From positions 43,214,001-43,278,000 of the forward strand of contig NC_083288.1 in the NCBI RefSeq assembly GCF_963506605.1: 64,000 nt of DNA, written 5' to 3'. Positions 23,830 through 62,997 of this stretch are shown in pieces. Both the position numbers and the translations under genes were made by a program. The DNA is from Zootoca vivipara. Lineage: Eukaryota. A model generated the notes under the pieces. The model was not told where the DNA came from and made no database searches. It saw only the letters and a program-made list of their open reading frames with translations. Numbering within the stretch: the first letter of the stretch is position 1; the number at the start of each line of letters is the position of its first letter.

Positions 23830-24527
23830 CAATCTAACTATTGAAATCATATAGTGGATACCTTTTAAAACATTTCAAGGTTTGTTTGTTTGTTTCTTTG
23901 TTTGGGAAGAGTTCACCTTTCTCTTGATATAAATGTTGCTTACTACCAGAAATTCATTTGTCGAAATATGGAAAACCTTGCTGTACTTGCAATTTGCTCC
24001 GGTATAAAAATATGTTTAGCAGTAGCTGAAAAATTCGCTCATAAATAATGTGTTGCCGATTCCATGAATATCATGAAAAATTCTGTACAGTTTGGTGGGA
24101 TTTTATCATGTACAGTACACAACAAATAAAGACCTACAGGATTCCCGTTCCATGGTACAACGTGAAATTTGGCCTTCCTAATGGTCTTACGTTCTTGACT
24201 TCTCTAATTTAAATATATTTCGGATATATTGCTTTTATGTATTTGTACTTGCACACCTATTATTTTTATTATATTGCTCTGCTTCATTTACTGCAATTAA
24301 TTAATATAGAACATGTGATAGTAGAGGTGGAAGAGACCCTGAAGGTCATCCATTCCCAACCCCTGAATGCAGGAATCTCAGCTAAAGCACCCATGACAGA
24401 TGGCCATCCAACCTCTGCTTTAAAACCTCCAATGAAGATGAGTCCACTACTTTCTGATGGAATCCCTTCTGCTGTCTAATAGCTCTTACTGACAGAAAGT
24501 TCTTCCTGATGTTTAATTGGAATCTCA

Positions 24528-24701
24528 TTTCTTCCCAACCTACTTATGCACCAAAGGGAAATAAATGGTGGCTGTGGAGATCTTTTCCATCTTGGTCGCC
24601 AGTGCGCAGATTTTGGGTTGTATCTTCTCCCCAAAATGTTATACCACTTTCCTCAGGCCTGAACTCACCAGAAAAGAGCAACTAAAAAGAGAAATAAGTA
24701 A
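24528..24701 (+). pseudogene. Orphan V2R TM7/C-tail fused to a CR1 fragment
   Basis: [23 protein letters not shown]; premature TAA 24562-24564 and 1-nt deletion near the end. Confidence 0.9.
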
Positions 24702-26300
24702 CAATCTATCTGCTAAAAGCCAAATATTCCAAAATAAACACAGCTGACTGGAACAGGCATTGCCTCTATATATGTAGGAACACCAAATGTTTCCAATGTG
24801 TCCCATTATAGCCTGAATGTATGATGTTTAGCTTCAGTCAGAGACTGCAGATTTATAACTGCCCATGGGTTCTGCAGCATATTCTACACTTTTGTCGAAT
24901 GAATGAGTCCTTAGGCTTCATACACACCATATATTCTTCCAGAATCAATGGACATGGAATCCCACCCCCCAATATAGTCTACACACAACTTTGATCTCTT
25001 GTATAGAGTTTGCCCCTTAAAAATGATTTAAAAACCACTTGAAAAATATATGGAAGCAGGAGAATTGCTTCAGCAATGGGAGATGTACTCACACTTTTCT
25101 TCTTTATACACCTGGGGCATGTATAAAGAGGTCAACCTGATCAGGGTTATGGTTCTCAAATGCGTGTTCCTCTCTTGTGGATGATGGGACCCTGGACTAA
25201 TCTAGGTTGAAAGCAGTCCCACAAATAGGGTGGGAAAGGAAATATCTCAGATGTCAAAGGTAAAGCTGTGTAGCTATGGTGCCACACTGTCCTCTCTGTG
25301 GGGAGGGAATTCCAAGGGCCACAACAGAGAATGCTTTTTCCTAGACCAATCTACCCTGAAATGTCTGAGGGCAGTGGAACTGCTAAGAAGGTGATTCTTA
25401 GGAGATAATAAAATCCAAGAGAGTCTGTAGGGAAGGAGATGCACTCTCAATTGCTTAGAGTTTTAAAGACTATCCAGAACAGACAGCCCAGAACAGTGAG
25501 GTGGGTTGCGCTCCTTCTTTCTCTCTCCTGAAAATGTCATCAGCCAGGTCAACCAAGTCAGTATATTTGCCTTGAACAGGCCTGAAACCAAACTGAAATT
25601 GATCCAGACATTCAGTCTCCTCTAAGTGTACCTGGAGTTGGATGGCACCACTATCTCAAGTATCTTGCCCCCAAAGGGGTTATTTGTCACTGGGCATGCA
25701 TGCTGCCTTGCCCCTGTGATTGGGGGTGCCTGGGAAGTGTGACGTCCGCAGGCCATGTGCACATGCCATGGGGTGTCCTGACGTCACTTGCACATGCTGT
25801 GGGGTGTGTTGACATGTCATGCAGATGCCCCATGGTTTGCACATGTGAAAAGGCATTCTGATGTTGTGTGGCCCGAGCCCCCTCAATTGCAATGGCAACG
25901 TGCATCACAGATTACTTAGATCTGCATACATAACTCCTCAGGTAGGCACGGAAGAGGCCTTCTCCTGATCCCTGGCATCCTCTGAGGTAAGTCCGGATAC
26001 TGCACACAGCAAGGGTCTGGCAGGATGAGGAAGAGTGGTGACAGTCAGGAGGTACCTGAAGGTGAAGGGGACTTTGAACTAGGTTCAGACTGGTGGGACA
26101 GATAGTCAGCCCAGAGTGAGAGTGAAGGGGAGAGGCTTCAGGTAGCCACAGACGCTGAGAGAAAAGGAGCGAGGGCTGTGTCTCCTCCTCTGCAATAGAG
26201 TCCTGATTCAGCTCCTTCCCCTCCTCCACTCTCAGTAAAGAAAATAAGGGTTGAGAAAAGGCTAGAATGATTCAGAAAAGCTGAGTCACAGTGGAAAAAT

Positions 26301-27220: not shown

Positions 27221-27438
27221 ATGCTAAGTTTGCTCTTCTGGGCCCTACTCATGGTGTTCCCTCTATTTGTGGCACATTCTACATTGCATTGTGTGATTGA
27301 CCCCCTCCACGCCCAACACCAGTATTATCAGCCGGGGCACTTTCTTATTGGTGGCATCACTTCACAATTCCTCATACCCGTTTTCACTTCAATAGACTTC
27401 GAGGAGAAGCCAAAGGAAACAACTGATGATGAATATGA
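27221..27438 (+). CDS. V2R G3 exon 1
   Basis: MLSLLFWALLMVFPL..YYQPGHFLIGG; donor GA|GTAAG. Confidence 0.92.
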
Positions 27439-28054: not shown

Positions 28055-28886
28055 GGATAGAATAGAATAGAATAGAATAGAATAGAATAGATCTTTATTG
28101 TCATTGTCCCCTTGTGGGAACAACGAAATTTCTCAGTTGCTATATCAACTCAACTCAACTCAAATAAGACACTCCACATAAATTAAAATACTAATAAGCG
28201 CAATACAATACAGAACAATATAACAAATAAGGAAGATGACTTCAGAGTCTAGAGTTTCCATTTAAGGCCAAGATTGCTCTAGGAAAGAAACTGTTCTTGA
28301 GACGGCTGGTTCTCGCCTTCATTGTTCTATATTTCCGTCCCAATGGCAAGAGCTCAAAGAAGCGATGACCCGGATGTGATGGGACTCTTGATATATCTAA
28401 TGCCTTTCTGTGGCACCTGATGGTATAGATATGTTCCAAGGCAGAGAGTGAACTGCCAATGGATACTCTCTGCTGTTTTAACAATTCTACACAACACTAT
28501 CCTTTCCCAAGAAGTACAGCTTCCGTACCACACACATAAGCCATAAGTGAGCACGCTCTCAATAGCACAGTGATAGAAGGCAAGCAGCAATTTTTGTGGA
28601 AGATGATTTTTCCTTAAAATTCTCAAAAAAAAAAAAAACAGTCTGTGCTGTGCTTCCTTCACAATCCTTCTTATGTTGACACTCCAGGACAGATCCTCCT
28701 GTATTTCAATACCAAGAAATCTAAATGTAGTCACCCTCTCCACACAAGTTCCATCAATCAATAGCGGCTGGACATCAATTTTCTGCTTCCTAAAGTCCAC
28801 CACGAGCTCCTTTGTTTTCTTTGTATTTATAAGCAAATTGTTGGTTCTGCACCACTTTATCAACCGCTCCACCTCATCCCTGTAGT
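28055..28886 (-). mobile_element. Rex1/Babar-type LINE 3' fragment
   Basis: YRDEV..WC..NNLLINTKKTKELVVDFRK..FRFLG..IESVLTYG..WYG; (TATTC)n tail; TSD ATCTTA. Confidence 0.85.
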
Positions 28887-28998
28887 ATCTTATGGGACAA
28901 TGTGTGTGTTTGTGTGTGTTTATCCACTTTCTAAACATGAGCTCTGTGCAGCAGAAGCAGGAAAACCCACCAAATGCATAATCCCTCTATTGTTTCAG

Positions 28999-32858: not shown

Positions 32859-34433
32859 GTAGGGGACTGTATGCTATAGTATATCAACTATATTGAGAAC
32901 ATGTTTGTTGTTAGCTATTTGAGAAAAAAATGGACGCCTAACTCCAGACTTGAAAATAAATCTTTAATTGTCAGGTTGTCAACAGTTGAATAACAAATAT
33001 TATTCATTCATATATCTATATCTATATCTATATCTATATCATCTATATCATCTGAATGGAGTGTGTTTCTGTCCCATAAACCCAAGAGAGGGTTTATAGT
33101 CCTTTTTGTTTTCAAAGCTCCTTCATAGCACAGGATAAGCTAATAATCCATAGCTTGCCTGTCCTCTGAAACCCCTCCTTGTACTGGACTATGTATTTTA
33201 AATGTCTGAAAATGATGCCAAGAAATGTTTTGATTGATTGATTGAAACCCCTCCAGATAATGTCTATTTGAAGTTACCACACTCCCACGTTCTCAGTCAA
33301 AGATGCAACTCACAGAATAATCAACCTACCGTCAGCTACCAACTGCCTCCTTCTTTCCCCAATACCATTTATTCTTTTGAAATGTATTTACAATGCAGAT
33401 ACAGTGGTACCTCATCGAGCATCCGGGATCCATTCCAGAGCCCCAGATGCTCAACGAAAGAGATGCTCGTCTGGGTTTGCCGTTGGCGTCCGCCTAAATT
33501 GACAATCAAGGGGGCGGAAGTTTGCAGAGGTGTGGCTGTACATCACAAATACTAACATCTGTAGCATCTGTGATGGAGATTGCTACGGTATATCAAGAGG
33601 AAAAGATGGACAACACGGAAAGAATAATGTTCTGTTGTTGTTGCTGTGCAGGAAGAAGCTGACAAACTCTGGATTAACAAGAACAACAACCGCTCATTTG
33701 GTTTGGTGTATCTTAATTGGCTCTGTTATCATTGGCACCAACTAGTGGCATTAGCTATCCTACAACTACCTAATTTCATATATTTCAGAATGTCTTCCAT
33801 ATAAATAGTGTGTTAGTGATACAAGTGTTTTATCATAAACAATACCATAAACAGTCAAGAAACAGATTTTCTGCTTACCTCCACACCTGTAAACTTCATG
33901 GATTGCATGGACTGCAACTTACTTAACCACCAAAACTCTAGAATTGTCAATTCAAGAGTATGTTTGGCCATATTCCTACATGTGTTGACTAGGTTATATT
34001 AGTAGCGTTAGTCTTCCATTGATGTTAAGCTTCCTTTATGGGTTATGAAATGCTATGAATATTGATAAATGAAACTTCCTATTTTACAACCATTTCTACT
34101 GGTAAGCTGTGAAAAATTAAAGTTTAATTAATATTTCTCCATCCAGATAGCTTGAAAGTTCTTAGTGCAATCGTGGGGACTTTATCCCTCTAAGCACAAA
34201 AAATTTTCAATCTTATACGTCCCGTAAACACAAACTCTTTGAGAATTGTTACCGTATTTTTTACCCGATACGATATTTAGTTTTAATTGTGATTTAATTA
34301 TCCACAGGATAGAATCCACCAAAAAATGACTTCTCTTGAAGACAAAACATGTTAACACTCTAACAATTTTATGAAAAAAATAATGTTTTGTATTGTATAC
34401 ACTGCAAATTACATTGAGTTATGGTGCAGTAAA

Positions 34434-34566
34434 AGTTACAGGTAGGTAGCCGTGTTGGTCTGAGTCGAAGCAAAATAAAAAAATTCCTTCAGTAGCACCT
34501 TAAAGACCAACTAAGTTTATATTTTGGTATGAGCTTTCGTGTGCATGCACACTTCTTCAGATACAC
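34434..34566 (-). mobile_element. Penelope-like element pseudo-LTR fragment
   Basis: GTTGGTCTTTAAGGTGCTA..AGACCAACACGGCTACC end typical of reptile Penelope; flanked by CAGTAAA repeat; absent from G2 and G4. Confidence 0.8.
34527..34564 (-). ncRNA. Minimal type I hammerhead ribozyme, intact core
   Basis: GUAU-CUGAAGA-A-GUGUGCAUGCACAC-GAAA-GC-UC-AUAC. Confidence 0.8.
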
Positions 34567-34671
34567 CAGTAAAGTAAAATTCAAAGTTTCCTGATCCTAT
34601 ACCATTAATATGTGTATCTCAGTGAGACTGAAAATGCTATAACTGTAATCCTGATTTCTTTATACTTCAAG

Positions 34672-35573
34672 ATTTGGATGATTGCTTCCAGTGCCAAGAT
34701 GATCGGTATCCTAATCAAGAGAGAAACCAATGCATTACCAAGAAAGAAAACTTCTTATCTTATGAAGCACCTTTAGGCATCAGTTTGGCTCTTTTGGCTC
34801 TGGCTTTTTCTGCAACTACAGCTTTGGTGTTTGGAATCTTCATCAAACATCAAAAGACTCCTATTGTCAAAGCCAACAACCGGAATCTCACATACACCCT
34901 GCTCATCTCCCTCCTGCTCTGCTTCCTCTGCTCCTTGCTATTCATTGGCCGCCCCCAGTTACTGACCTGCAATCTACGACAAATTGCTTTTGGTATCATC
35001 TTCTCAGTGGCTGTTTCTTCTGTTTTGGCTAAAACCCTCACTGTGGTTCTGGCTTTCATGGCCACCAAACCAGGATCCAAGATGAGGAAATGGGTGGGGA
35101 AAAGATTTTCAACCTCTATTGTTCTTGGTTGTGCTTTTGTCCAGGCAAGTATTTGTATAGTATGGCTCTGTACTGATCCTCCTTTTCCAGATGTGGACAT
35201 GCACTCTCTGCCAAAAGAAATCATAGTGGAATGCAATGAAGGTTCAGCCAACATCTTCTATTATGTTCTTGGTTACATGGGTTTACTGGCTCTTGTCAGC
35301 TTCATTGTGGCTTTCTTTGCTCGGAAGCTGCCAGACACTTTTAATGAAGCCAAATTTATCACTTTCAGCATGTTGGTGTTTTGCAGTGTGTGGCTTTCTT
35401 TTGTTCCAACCTACTTAAGCACCAAAGGGAAGTACATGGTGGCTGTGGAGATCTTCTCCATCTTGGCCTCCAGTGCTGGGATCTTGAGTTGTATCTTCTC
35501 CCCCAAATGCTTTATTATTATCTTCAAGCCTGAACTCAATTCGAAAGAGCAGCTAAAAAAGAGAAATAAGTAG
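34672..35573 (+). CDS. V2R G3 exon 6 (7TM)
   Basis: AAG|ATTTG (D-L-D-D-C), open to TAG. Confidence 0.97.
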
Positions 35574-35619
35574 CCATCTAACTAATGAAATCGTTATCCT
35601 ATAACTAATGAAATCGTTA

Positions 35620-36470
35620 TCCTATATAATCTCTGCGTCCAGTATTTCCTGTGTCCCTGGGTTTGCGCTACTGCGCATGTGCCCCACAGACAGAGGGACC
35701 GGAGGCACAGAGCCCAATCCCCACACACTCCCCATCCCCGCGCACTCACTCGCGCCCTCGCGGTTCTCTCTCCCTCAACGGCTTCCCGTCCAAACCACCG
35801 TTTTGCGCCTCGCTTCCCAACTAACAGCGCGAGGGGAAGAGGGGAAGGGACCACGAGGGATTGTGACGTGAGCGTGCGATGGGGCCGCCGTTCCCCACCC
35901 CCACCCCATCGCCGCATCCCAACCCCTCCCCCCACCCGGCGGTTCAGATAGCCGTAAAAAGAATTAGGCAAGGCGGGCTCGGCTCTGGGTGGGTTGGGAA
36001 AGGCGGGAGGGCATGCGTGCGCACGGCGGGAGACGCGATAACGTCGGGGGAAGCACACAACGGACGCAGGGACACAAACAGCCTAGAGCACCATGGGAGG
36101 GGCTGGAGAGTCCCGAGCCTCTGGGATGCAGCAGTGCTCTGTAGGACTTTGAATCCTCCTCCTGCTGCCGTGGCTCGGTGCCTGGAACTGACTGCTGCTG
36201 CTGCTGCTGAAGCACCGACAAAGCACCCAGCAGCGCCGCGTGGAGCGCCCCGAGCCACGGCAGGAGGAGGAGGATTCAAAGTGCTACAGAGCACTGCTGC
36301 ATCCCAGAGGCTCAGGACTCGCTGACCCGGCAAGCCGCCACCTCCTCCTCCTCCTGCCGTGGCTCAGCACCCTCCCCGCTAACGCGCAACTCTGAGGAGG
36401 CTATACGCACCTCTCCTAAGAAAACCGACACCCGCTGCCTCATGCTGTGTGGGAAATGCTTTTTGCCCCT
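35620..36470 (+). mobile_element. GC-rich Helitron-like insert in G3 3' flank with internal inverted repeat
   Basis: A|TCCTATATAAT start, homology to 17158 leftward; no 3' CTAG end seen. Confidence 0.5.
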
Positions 36471-37621
36471 GGGTAAAGATGCTATTGCTGAAATATCAGT
36501 TAATTAGTAGTTGGAATGAGATCAGAAGGGAAGTTTGGATATGTGCCCGGATCAAAATGGTGGAGGGTCAAGATCTCCCCTTTGTTTGCTTCAGTTGTGA
36601 TGCATCGAGAATCGACTCTCTGAAAACGAAGGTGAACGCTGCAGCTGAAAATGATGGATTACGAAAGGAAAAAATAAAATAAAGAAGAAGAAACTCACTT
36701 CACACAGAGCATTAAAGGACTAAGCCGCTTGATAAATGAACTAAGAGGCTGTTAAAAATAAACGAAGGATGAATTACCAGAAATATGTTATTGAAACTTT
36801 TCGTATCACCAAGGAATATAGTACAATGTGAGATCATCACTCCTCAAACTTCAGAGCATGGAGAGTCATTGTATTATACTTTGGAAGGCATTTAATGTGG
36901 TTTTTATTGGATTATTAAACTAGAAAACTTAATAAATATTATTTCTAATGAACAAACAAACAAACAAATGTTTTAAGGTTTGTATGTTTGTGAAGGGTTC
37001 AGCTTTCAGGTTCCCTTGATATAGAGATGTTGCTTACTGCCAGAACTTCAGTTGTCAAAATAAGGATAACCTTGCAGTACTTGCAACTTCCTCCGGTATA
37101 AAAATATGTTTAGCACTAGCTGAAAAATTTGCTCATAAATAATGTGTTGCCAATTCCATGAATATCATGAAAAATTCTGTGTGGTTTGGTGGGATTTTAT
37201 CATGTATCAGTACACAACAAATATAGACCTGCAGGATTCCCTTTCCATGGTACAACATGAAATTTGGCCTTCCTAATGGTCTTAAGTTCTTGACTTATCT
37301 AATTTAAATCTCTTTCAGATACATTGCTTTTATGTATTTGTACTTGCACACCTATGATTTTTATTGTATTGCTCTGCTTGATTTACTGCAATTAATTAAT
37401 ATAGAACATGTGATAGTAGAGGTGGAAGAGACCCTGAAGGCCATTCAGTTGAAACCCCCAAAAGCAGGAAATGCAGCAAAAGCACCCATGACAGATGGGC
37501 ATCCAACCTCTGCTTTAAAACCTCCAATGAAACATAGTCTACTATTTTCTGAGGGAGTCCCTTCCACTGTCTACAGCCTTTACTGACAGAAAGTTCTTCC
37601 TGATGTTTAGTTGGAATCTCC

Positions 37622-37796
37622 TTTCTTCCCAACCTACTTAAGCACCAAAGGGAAATACATGGTGGCTGTGGAGATCTTCTCTATCTTGGTCTCCAGTGCT
37701 GGGATCTTGGGTTGTATCTTCTCCCCAAAATATTATATCACTGTCCTCAGGCCTGAACTCACCAGACAAGAGCAGCTAAAAAAGAGAAATAAGTGA
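37622..37796 (+). pseudogene. Orphan V2R TM7/C-tail fused to a CR1 fragment (frame still open)
   Basis: [57 protein letters not shown]. Confidence 0.9.
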
Positions 37797-57313: not shown

Positions 57314-57448
57314 TTACAGGTAGGTAGCCGTGTTGGTCTGACGTAGTCAAAACAAAAAATAAAAAAAATTCCTTCCAGTAGCACCTTAGAGACCAACTAA
57401 GTTTGTCATTGGTATGAGCTTTTGTGTGCATGCACACTTCTTCAGATA
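57314..57448 (-). mobile_element. Penelope-like pseudo-LTR fragment with mutated hammerhead (G12A)
   Basis: Same family as 34434; core reads CUGAAGA..AAAA instead of GAAA. Confidence 0.8.
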
Positions 57449-62900: not shown

Positions 62901-62997
62901 TCTGAAGAAGTGTGCATGCACACGAAAGCTCATAACAATGACAAACTTAGTTGGTCTCTAAGGTGCTGCTGGAAGGAATTTGTTTGTTTGTTTGTTT
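62901..62997 (+). mobile_element. Penelope-like fragment with hammerhead core in sense orientation (62902-62931)
   Basis: CTGAAGAAGTGTGCATGCACACGAAAGCTC followed by GTTGGTCTCTAAGGTGC. Confidence 0.8.

Follow-up and report, generated by a model that had tools for sequence, protein, structure and literature searches.

A minimal hammerhead of a Neptune-type Penelope-like element in intron 5 of a V2R gene of Zootoca vivipara, probably an inactive passenger

Minimal hammerheads of Penelope elements have already been reported from turtle and snakes. In the experiments described in that report, a single metazoan minimal motif tested as a monomer showed no cleavage, whereas dimers were cleaved weakly (PMC4209133). 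The hammerhead of PAc, an element of the anole, is described as dependent on the protein of the element for cleavage, and as dispensable for insertion in vitro. In the same account, the two classes of PAc 3' ends, which lie a tail apart, are ascribed to reverse transcription starting at two internal sites (PMC11167929). What hammerheads do in Penelope elements that bear an endonuclease is called unclear in a survey that, in its sections on these elements, gives a CX2-5CxxC linker as characteristic of the Neptune and Nematis clades (PMC8557442). For the vertebrates sampled in a 2026 preprint, the relevant part of the text reports only Neptune and Poseidon, and its definition of a retrozyme includes a two-unit requirement (10.64898/2026.07.22.740005).

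The locus described here lies in a 64-kb stretch of DNA from Zootoca vivipara, hereafter the window. It contains a Neptune-type Penelope-like minimal hammerhead within a recent 132-bp leader copy in intron 5 of a V2R gene. On the evidence below, this copy is very probably an inactive passenger on the strand opposite the gene. The coordinates of the features are collected in Table 1.

Table 1. Features of the hammerhead, the insertion and the host intron (positions in the window)
Feature	Positions	Strand	Remarks
Minimal type I hammerhead	34527..34564	minus	Read directly; stems I and II fold; 13,219 exact genome copies
Stem I, 5' strand	34564-34561	minus	4 bp with 34530-34527
CUGAAGA box	34560-34554	minus	
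Single extra A after CUGAAGA	34553	minus	
Stem II	34552-34539	minus	5 bp and 4-nt loop, closed by G10.1-C11.1
GAAA box	34538-34535	minus	
Loop 3, GC	34534-34533	minus	2 nt
U16.1 and C17	34532 and 34531	minus	UC cleavage site
Stem I, 3' strand	34530-34527	minus	
132-bp piece of pseudo-LTR / 5' leader, Neptune-type Penelope-like element	34435..34566	minus	
Optional tail, element 3' end	34435..34471	minus	About 37 nt; two 3'-end groups; matches the 30-40 bp tail of Penelope-like elements
Target-site duplication, left copy	34428..34434	plus	7 bp; empty allele joins 34427 to 34573
Target-site duplication, right copy	34573..34579	plus	7 bp
Filler bases at element 5' junction	34567..34572	plus	6 bases; match target; missing from empty allele
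Older copy, same family	57314..57448	minus	GAAA box changed to AAAA
Older tail-less copy, same family	62901..62989	plus	Stem I disrupted
Intron 5, third V2R (family C GPCR) gene	32859..34671	plus	Splice sites taken from the sequence

The minus strand at 34564-34527 presents CUGANGA, GAAA, U16.1 and H17 in the type I order, and the predicted cut falls between 34531 and 34530. The parts that the initial annotation had listed for this strand (stem I, the two boxes, a palindromic stem II and C17) were each recovered by direct reading. The motif also has the characters of the Penelope type, namely a helix I of 4-5 bp, an extra nucleotide before G10.1-C11.1, palindromic positions 15.2-16.2 and no stable helix III. 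It is not a canonical type I hammerhead, which has a 6-bp helix I and loop contacts: helix I here is 4 bp. The motif is the only match to the type I descriptor in the 64-kb window, and 100 simulated 64-kb windows with matched dinucleotide frequencies gave 0 matches. Stems I and II were recovered by RNAfold with an unremarkable z of -0.44. An Rfam search, which had been proposed as a check, gave 0 matches to the hammerhead models in the region 33000-36000 at E up to 10. It should be mentioned that stem II with its loop (34539-34552, minus) is a perfect 14-nt palindrome.

In the lone copy, helix III is reduced to one pair around two bases, and such a monomer fold is disallowed by ViennaRNA. When two copies were cofolded, pairing of the palindromic stem II reached -28 to -30.6 kcal/mol, compared with -11.1 for the AGCU double hammerhead. 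Therefore, the active dimer fold seems to be disfavoured in this simple cofolding model, in which the stem II palindrome outscores it. A design for dimer cleavage, as suggested in the initial annotation, is supported by analogy with the published motifs.

The origin of the motif is indicated by tandem full-length elements of 3,030 bp at three loci on two chromosomes (L243-L245), which carry open 901-aa ORFs. In these elements, a hammerhead identical to that of the window stands in direct repeats 3,030 bp apart, flanking the 901-aa ORF; this bears out the earlier assignment to the Penelope-type minimal hammerheads. The 901-aa protein comprises a reverse transcriptase as well as a GIY-YIG domain at the C terminus (in L245, RVT_1 at 3.8e-12 and GIY-YIG at 5.9e-05). 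It has a YIDD sequence and one CX4CXXC linker at residue 761. The middle copy of L244 has YIDN in place of YIDD. A single ORF of reverse transcriptase and GIY-YIG, tandem pseudo-LTRs (pLTRs), inverted 5' partners, an optional tail and a short target duplication are all present, as in endonuclease-bearing (EN+) Penelope-like elements. In addition, the linker between the two domains conforms to the CX2-5CxxC pattern of the Neptune clade, and the same linker is common to Nematis. The parent is called Neptune-type here on the basis of this linker, a character that would fit Nematis as well.

In the masters, the hammerhead is preceded by a TATA-like box, whose start lies 34 nt above it, and is followed by the ATG at 137 nt. 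Since it sits between these two, the insert in the window corresponds to the leader part of the pseudo-LTR. The 132 bp begin slightly above stem I and stop a little short of the ORF; over 131 nt, the insert shares 97% identity with the pLTRs of the intact 3,030-bp elements. These intact masters belong to a sister subfamily, 97% identical over the insert; an intact master of the insert's own subfamily was not found among 30 of the 278 ORF-start loci or in L091. The insert is colinear with longer copies of its own subfamily, which run on into the TATA-like box and the GIY-YIG end. The non-autonomous insert postulated in the initial annotation is therefore not a family of its own: it is a short leader copy of an autonomous element with intact masters.

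The window contains five V2R-like genes, and the host of the motif is the third, whose exon 1 begins at 27221. Six exons are recognisable in this gene, and their peptides match ANF_receptor, NCD3G and 7tm_3. Exon order and splice sites confirm the placement in intron 5 of the third V2R gene that had been given at the outset. The hammerhead is on the strand opposite the gene, so that the V2R pre-mRNA bears its reverse complement, and the footprint of the insert stops 92 nt upstream of the acceptor of intron 5. On the V2R sense strand (plus), the insert supplies a donor-like site, CAG|GTAGGT, at 34439-34447. This site matches the consensus as well as the donor of V2R exon 5 itself and is 230 nt upstream of the exon 6 acceptor. 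Downstream of two genes (24509-24711 and 37621-37794), there are additional short stretches similar to the end of V2R exon 6. Intron 1 of the V2R gene contains, at 28354-28986 (minus), a reading frame that we take to resemble the end of a LINE-type reverse transcriptase.

The limits of the insertion are indicated by an empty site, which was found in one contig of run X12, from a different study. There, 34427 is joined without gap to 34573 at a depth of 3.65; the left side has 4 differences in 237 bases and the right side 0 in 154. Because this allele lacks 145 bp, the footprint of the insert is 145 bp, made up of 7 of duplication, 132 of element and 6 of filler. The earlier description of a 133-bp insert with CAGTAAA flanks is correct in that two CAGTAAA words stand 133 bp apart, but not as to the footprint. 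The filler bases (34567..34572) are unlike the element's own upstream sequence and would represent a partial re-copy of the target sequence. Filled junctions at both ends were found without differences in runs X8 and X10. The insertion is therefore probably polymorphic and very young, which supports the young age proposed before. The empty site of X12 could instead come from a very close paralog. The known paralogs, however, show 10-16 differences in similar lengths, far above those of the X12 contig. The insert is missing from both paralogs that align at the insertion point, in agreement with its claimed absence from paralogs; a third paralog did not align there.

Throughout the genome, the exact 38-nt hammerhead pattern was counted 13,219 times, which supplies the copy count that had been called for. 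The 30-mer downstream (3') of the hammerhead has 19,454 exact copies and the 29-mer at the ORF start 278. When the genome was searched with the insert, 861 candidates came up, and the 40 that were scored were 97-100% identical. Compared with a reference copy, the hammerhead differs across subfamilies at 62 of 3,083 aligned bases (2.0%), whereas divergence is 18-22% in the upstream pLTR, 10% at the ORF end and 3.6-4.6% on the 3' side of the hammerhead. The sample comprised 106 alignments, the copies having been picked by means of a word downstream, and this choice partly explains the low divergence 3' of the hammerhead. Within the hammerhead, a change recurs only at N7, the position that CUGANGA leaves free (11 C and 3 T among 76).

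Covariation of stems I and II across copies had been named as a test of the motif, and the outcome was different at two levels. Within the young family, no covariation of stem II was seen: 96 of the 100 variants listed, from 197 in total, were uncompensated as judged by eye, as expected for dead copies. Between families, compensation was found. Nine decayed copies of an older hammerhead family (L204-L212) are near the published turtle motif. In four of the nine, C-G replaces U-A in stem I, at a position outside the search pattern, whereas the G-C of stem II in this older family was fixed by that pattern. The covariation score was 0.254, and 7 of 500 shuffles were as high, with 12 related rows and stem II partly fixed by the pattern. 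Furthermore, the published painted turtle motif has the same swap in stem I together with G-C for U-A in stem II (PMC4209133). The expected covariation thus holds between families, through the older family and the turtle motif, but not within the young family. This means that the fold is kept in active lineages and not at single insertions.

The initial annotation had also claimed that the motif would cut antisense transcripts of the V2R gene. A lone copy could do so in trans with family RNA or with the element's protein, and in favour of this reading no base of the core is altered, RNA of the family abounds on both strands and would provide partners, and the anole motif was reported to cleave once its element's protein had been added (PMC11167929). 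In run X13, 6,373 reads fell on the repeat and 0 on the unique flanks (about 6% of the run was read; tissue unspecified), which speaks against an antisense transcript at this locus. The nearest intact copy found on the same strand is 33.6 kb away, in a search of the window and 10 kb on each side, and the other two copies in the window are damaged. Moreover, the apparent presence/absence polymorphism speaks against a fixed role. Because the lone copy has no helix III, the nearest intact copy is 33.6 kb off and no flank RNA was found, the cutting of antisense V2R RNA is unsupported, in line with the inactivity of the published monomer; we regard it as very improbable.

The RNA of the family as a whole can be described from runs X13-X15. 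On the master, depth was in the hundreds to thousands over the motif and tail and at most 11 past the ATG, and 48-88% of the reads continue into other sequence. The strand ratio in the same bin was about 3.5 to 1 in X13 and about 1 to 1 in X14 and X15. The depth and the reads that run on fit passenger transcription within host RNAs. No pile-up of read ends at the cut site was seen in about 6% of each of the three runs, a result that also tells against antisense cutting, with the limit that such libraries detect cut ends poorly.

Next, the ends of the copies indicate how these were made. The 3' ends of 93 copies fall into two groups, at positions 85-104 (45 copies) and 125-137 (37 copies), about 37 nt apart. 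The copy in the window has the long 3' end, with the tail included. At the 5' side, 25 of 55 shortened copies end within -7 to +9 of stem I, and one ends in the 12 nt above. The first pass had given a similar cluster at the edge of stem I (30 of 70). For these 5' ends, the window, its neighbours and about 3.5 Mb at the end of one chromosome were sampled, and 31 of 86 copies running past the end of the reference were left out. Use of cleaved RNA as template, with copies beginning at the cut site, was rejected: 0 of 70 ends lay there in the first pass, and 0 of 55 (positions 33-37) after re-anchoring with several subfamily references. A cap-derived extra G at the 5' ends of the short copies was likewise rejected (G 289, T 1,159); the G at the 5' junction of the window copy is accounted for by the target sequence. 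Since 12 of the 25 clustered ends adjoin an inverted partner, template switching may contribute to the 5' cluster. An uncut RNA with its 5' end just above stem I would be the simplest reading, to judge from the TATA spacing and the copy ends.

The insertion in intron 5 might then have arisen as follows. The RT/GIY-YIG protein of the element would nick an AT-rich site, and reverse transcription would begin at the distal end of the tail. Copying of the uncut leader RNA would proceed almost to its 5' end, slightly above stem I, and the copy would be joined with the 7-bp duplication and the 6 filler bases. The ribozyme is likely to be functional only in tandem transcripts of the element, either with 3,030-nt units or from mini-arrays of 263-598 nt units. 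In such tandems, two copies might build helix III from the self-complementary AGCU, probably with the help of the protein.

One might also take the 132-bp piece for a SINE-like family in its own right, with short loci as the source of its copies. Short copies are indeed frequent, and the 132 nt occur letter for letter in 40 of 247 fetched loci, which are overlapping and selected. Both ends vary between copies, however, and 31 of 86 anchored copies extend more than 245 nt upstream into the ORF end. Furthermore, the short piece lacks a TATA-like box and has no diagnostic changes relative to the long copies. A self-propagating short family is thus highly unlikely, and derivation of the piece from the leader of the autonomous element is preferred.

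A different alternative concerns the family and is compatible with the preferred explanation at this locus. The motif might be kept for a structural role in the leader, as promoter, in protein binding or as the end of reverse transcription, and cleave rarely or never, even in tandems. The clustering of copy ends at the 5' edge of the motif with none at the cut site is in keeping with this role, as is the lack of read ends there. The unimpaired in vitro insertion of hammerhead mutants in the anole points the same way (PMC11167929), and stem II pairing may outcompete the active dimer in the cofolding model. On the other hand, variation confined to N7 together with stem covariation is the pattern expected of a catalytic fold, and the anole motif is reported to show loss and rescue at C3/G8 (PMC11167929). 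A purely structural role seems rather unlikely, with considerably more in its favour than either antisense cutting or a SINE-like origin.

Near-perfect tandem arrays of short units were also found in the genome. At L246:1508-4400 (G000:C3, about 91.909-91.912 Mb), a 293-bp unit is repeated 9.9 times head-to-tail with 100% identity. In this unit, an internal deletion has joined the start of the ORF to the TATA region, the hammerhead and the tail, and the array contains ten intact hammerheads on one strand. It looks like a retrozyme newly derived from the element. Two other arrays have their own deletion points: 598 bp x 4.1 at L184:3320-5742, both ends of which fall in the tail, and 263 bp x 2.2 at L247:1856-2442. 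At L184, L246 and L247, at least two consecutive units each carry a complete hammerhead, as in retrozymes; the window copy, being a single monomer, is not a retrozyme. Because ORF remnants persist, the mini-arrays are internal deletions of the element.

We tentatively consider, at somewhat less than even confidence, that Penelope elements give birth to retrozymes here. The hammerhead would stand at the start of the transcript, the uncut leader would yield short inserts by the thousand, like that of the window, and deleted units would be amplified through rolling-circle reverse transcription, with cutting of dimers in the arrays. If this is true, the intact 901-aa masters would open the role of Penelope hammerheads to direct test in a Neptune-type element of a vertebrate.

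For the V2R gene, the insertion is probably of little consequence: at least 13,000 such copies exist, and its presence or absence is probably polymorphic. Cutting of host antisense RNA by lone copies, if it took place, would extend to thousands of loci; nothing here shows such cutting. The family itself is very young and abundant, and it combines intact masters with mini tandem arrays and sharply patterned copy ends. It is worth following at this level, for the copy ends at the hammerhead edge, the newborn tandem arrays and the intact masters. In the literature on hammerheads, Penelope and Neptune in lizards and squamates, this exact family was not found; repeat libraries lay outside that search, and the family may already be catalogued there.

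The motif of the window belongs to the Penelope minimal hammerheads known since 2014. With the painted turtle motif, as described by Cervera and De la Pena (2014, PMC4209133), it shares the type I order, the 4-bp helix I and the extra nucleotide before G10.1-C11.1. The CUGAAGAA and GAAA-GC-U core and the palindromic 15.2-16.2 are common to the turtle and metazoan Penelope motifs of that report. The metazoan motifs are also similar in their pLTR location and in their thousands of mostly single copies. The turtle motif is a direct homologue, with compensating changes in both stems. In contrast to the high variability stressed in that paper, 13,219 copies here agree in all 38 nt, as in an invasion still under way. 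Moreover, the loop of stem II is self-complementary here, and H17 is C, not U.

PAc of Anolis carolinensis, as presented by Frangieh et al. (2024, PMC11167929), likewise has a pLTR hammerhead, two 3'-end classes a tail apart, an AT-rich target and insertion from uncut RNA, with no RNA-seq ends at the cut site. PAc belongs to the Poseidon clade and its ORF starts inside stem II, whereas here 137 nt separate the beginning of stem I from the ORF start. In addition, both 3'-end classes are before the ATG here, and the protein has the CX2-5CxxC linker. With the Neptune/Nematis EN+ elements in the account of Craig et al. (2021, PMC8557442), the family shares a single ORF of reverse transcriptase followed by GIY-YIG, a zinc-finger-like linker, partial tandems, inverted 5' partners and a 30-40 bp tail, and no differences were found from the features described in that account. 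Finally, the arrays resemble the non-LTR retrozymes outlined by Cervera and de la Pena (2020, PMC7229834) and Li et al. (2026, 10.64898/2026.07.22.740005) in that they are short tandems, non-coding, whose consecutive units contain a complete type I hammerhead. The hammerheads in the arrays of this family are minimal, whereas those of the retrozymes in these two descriptions are canonical.
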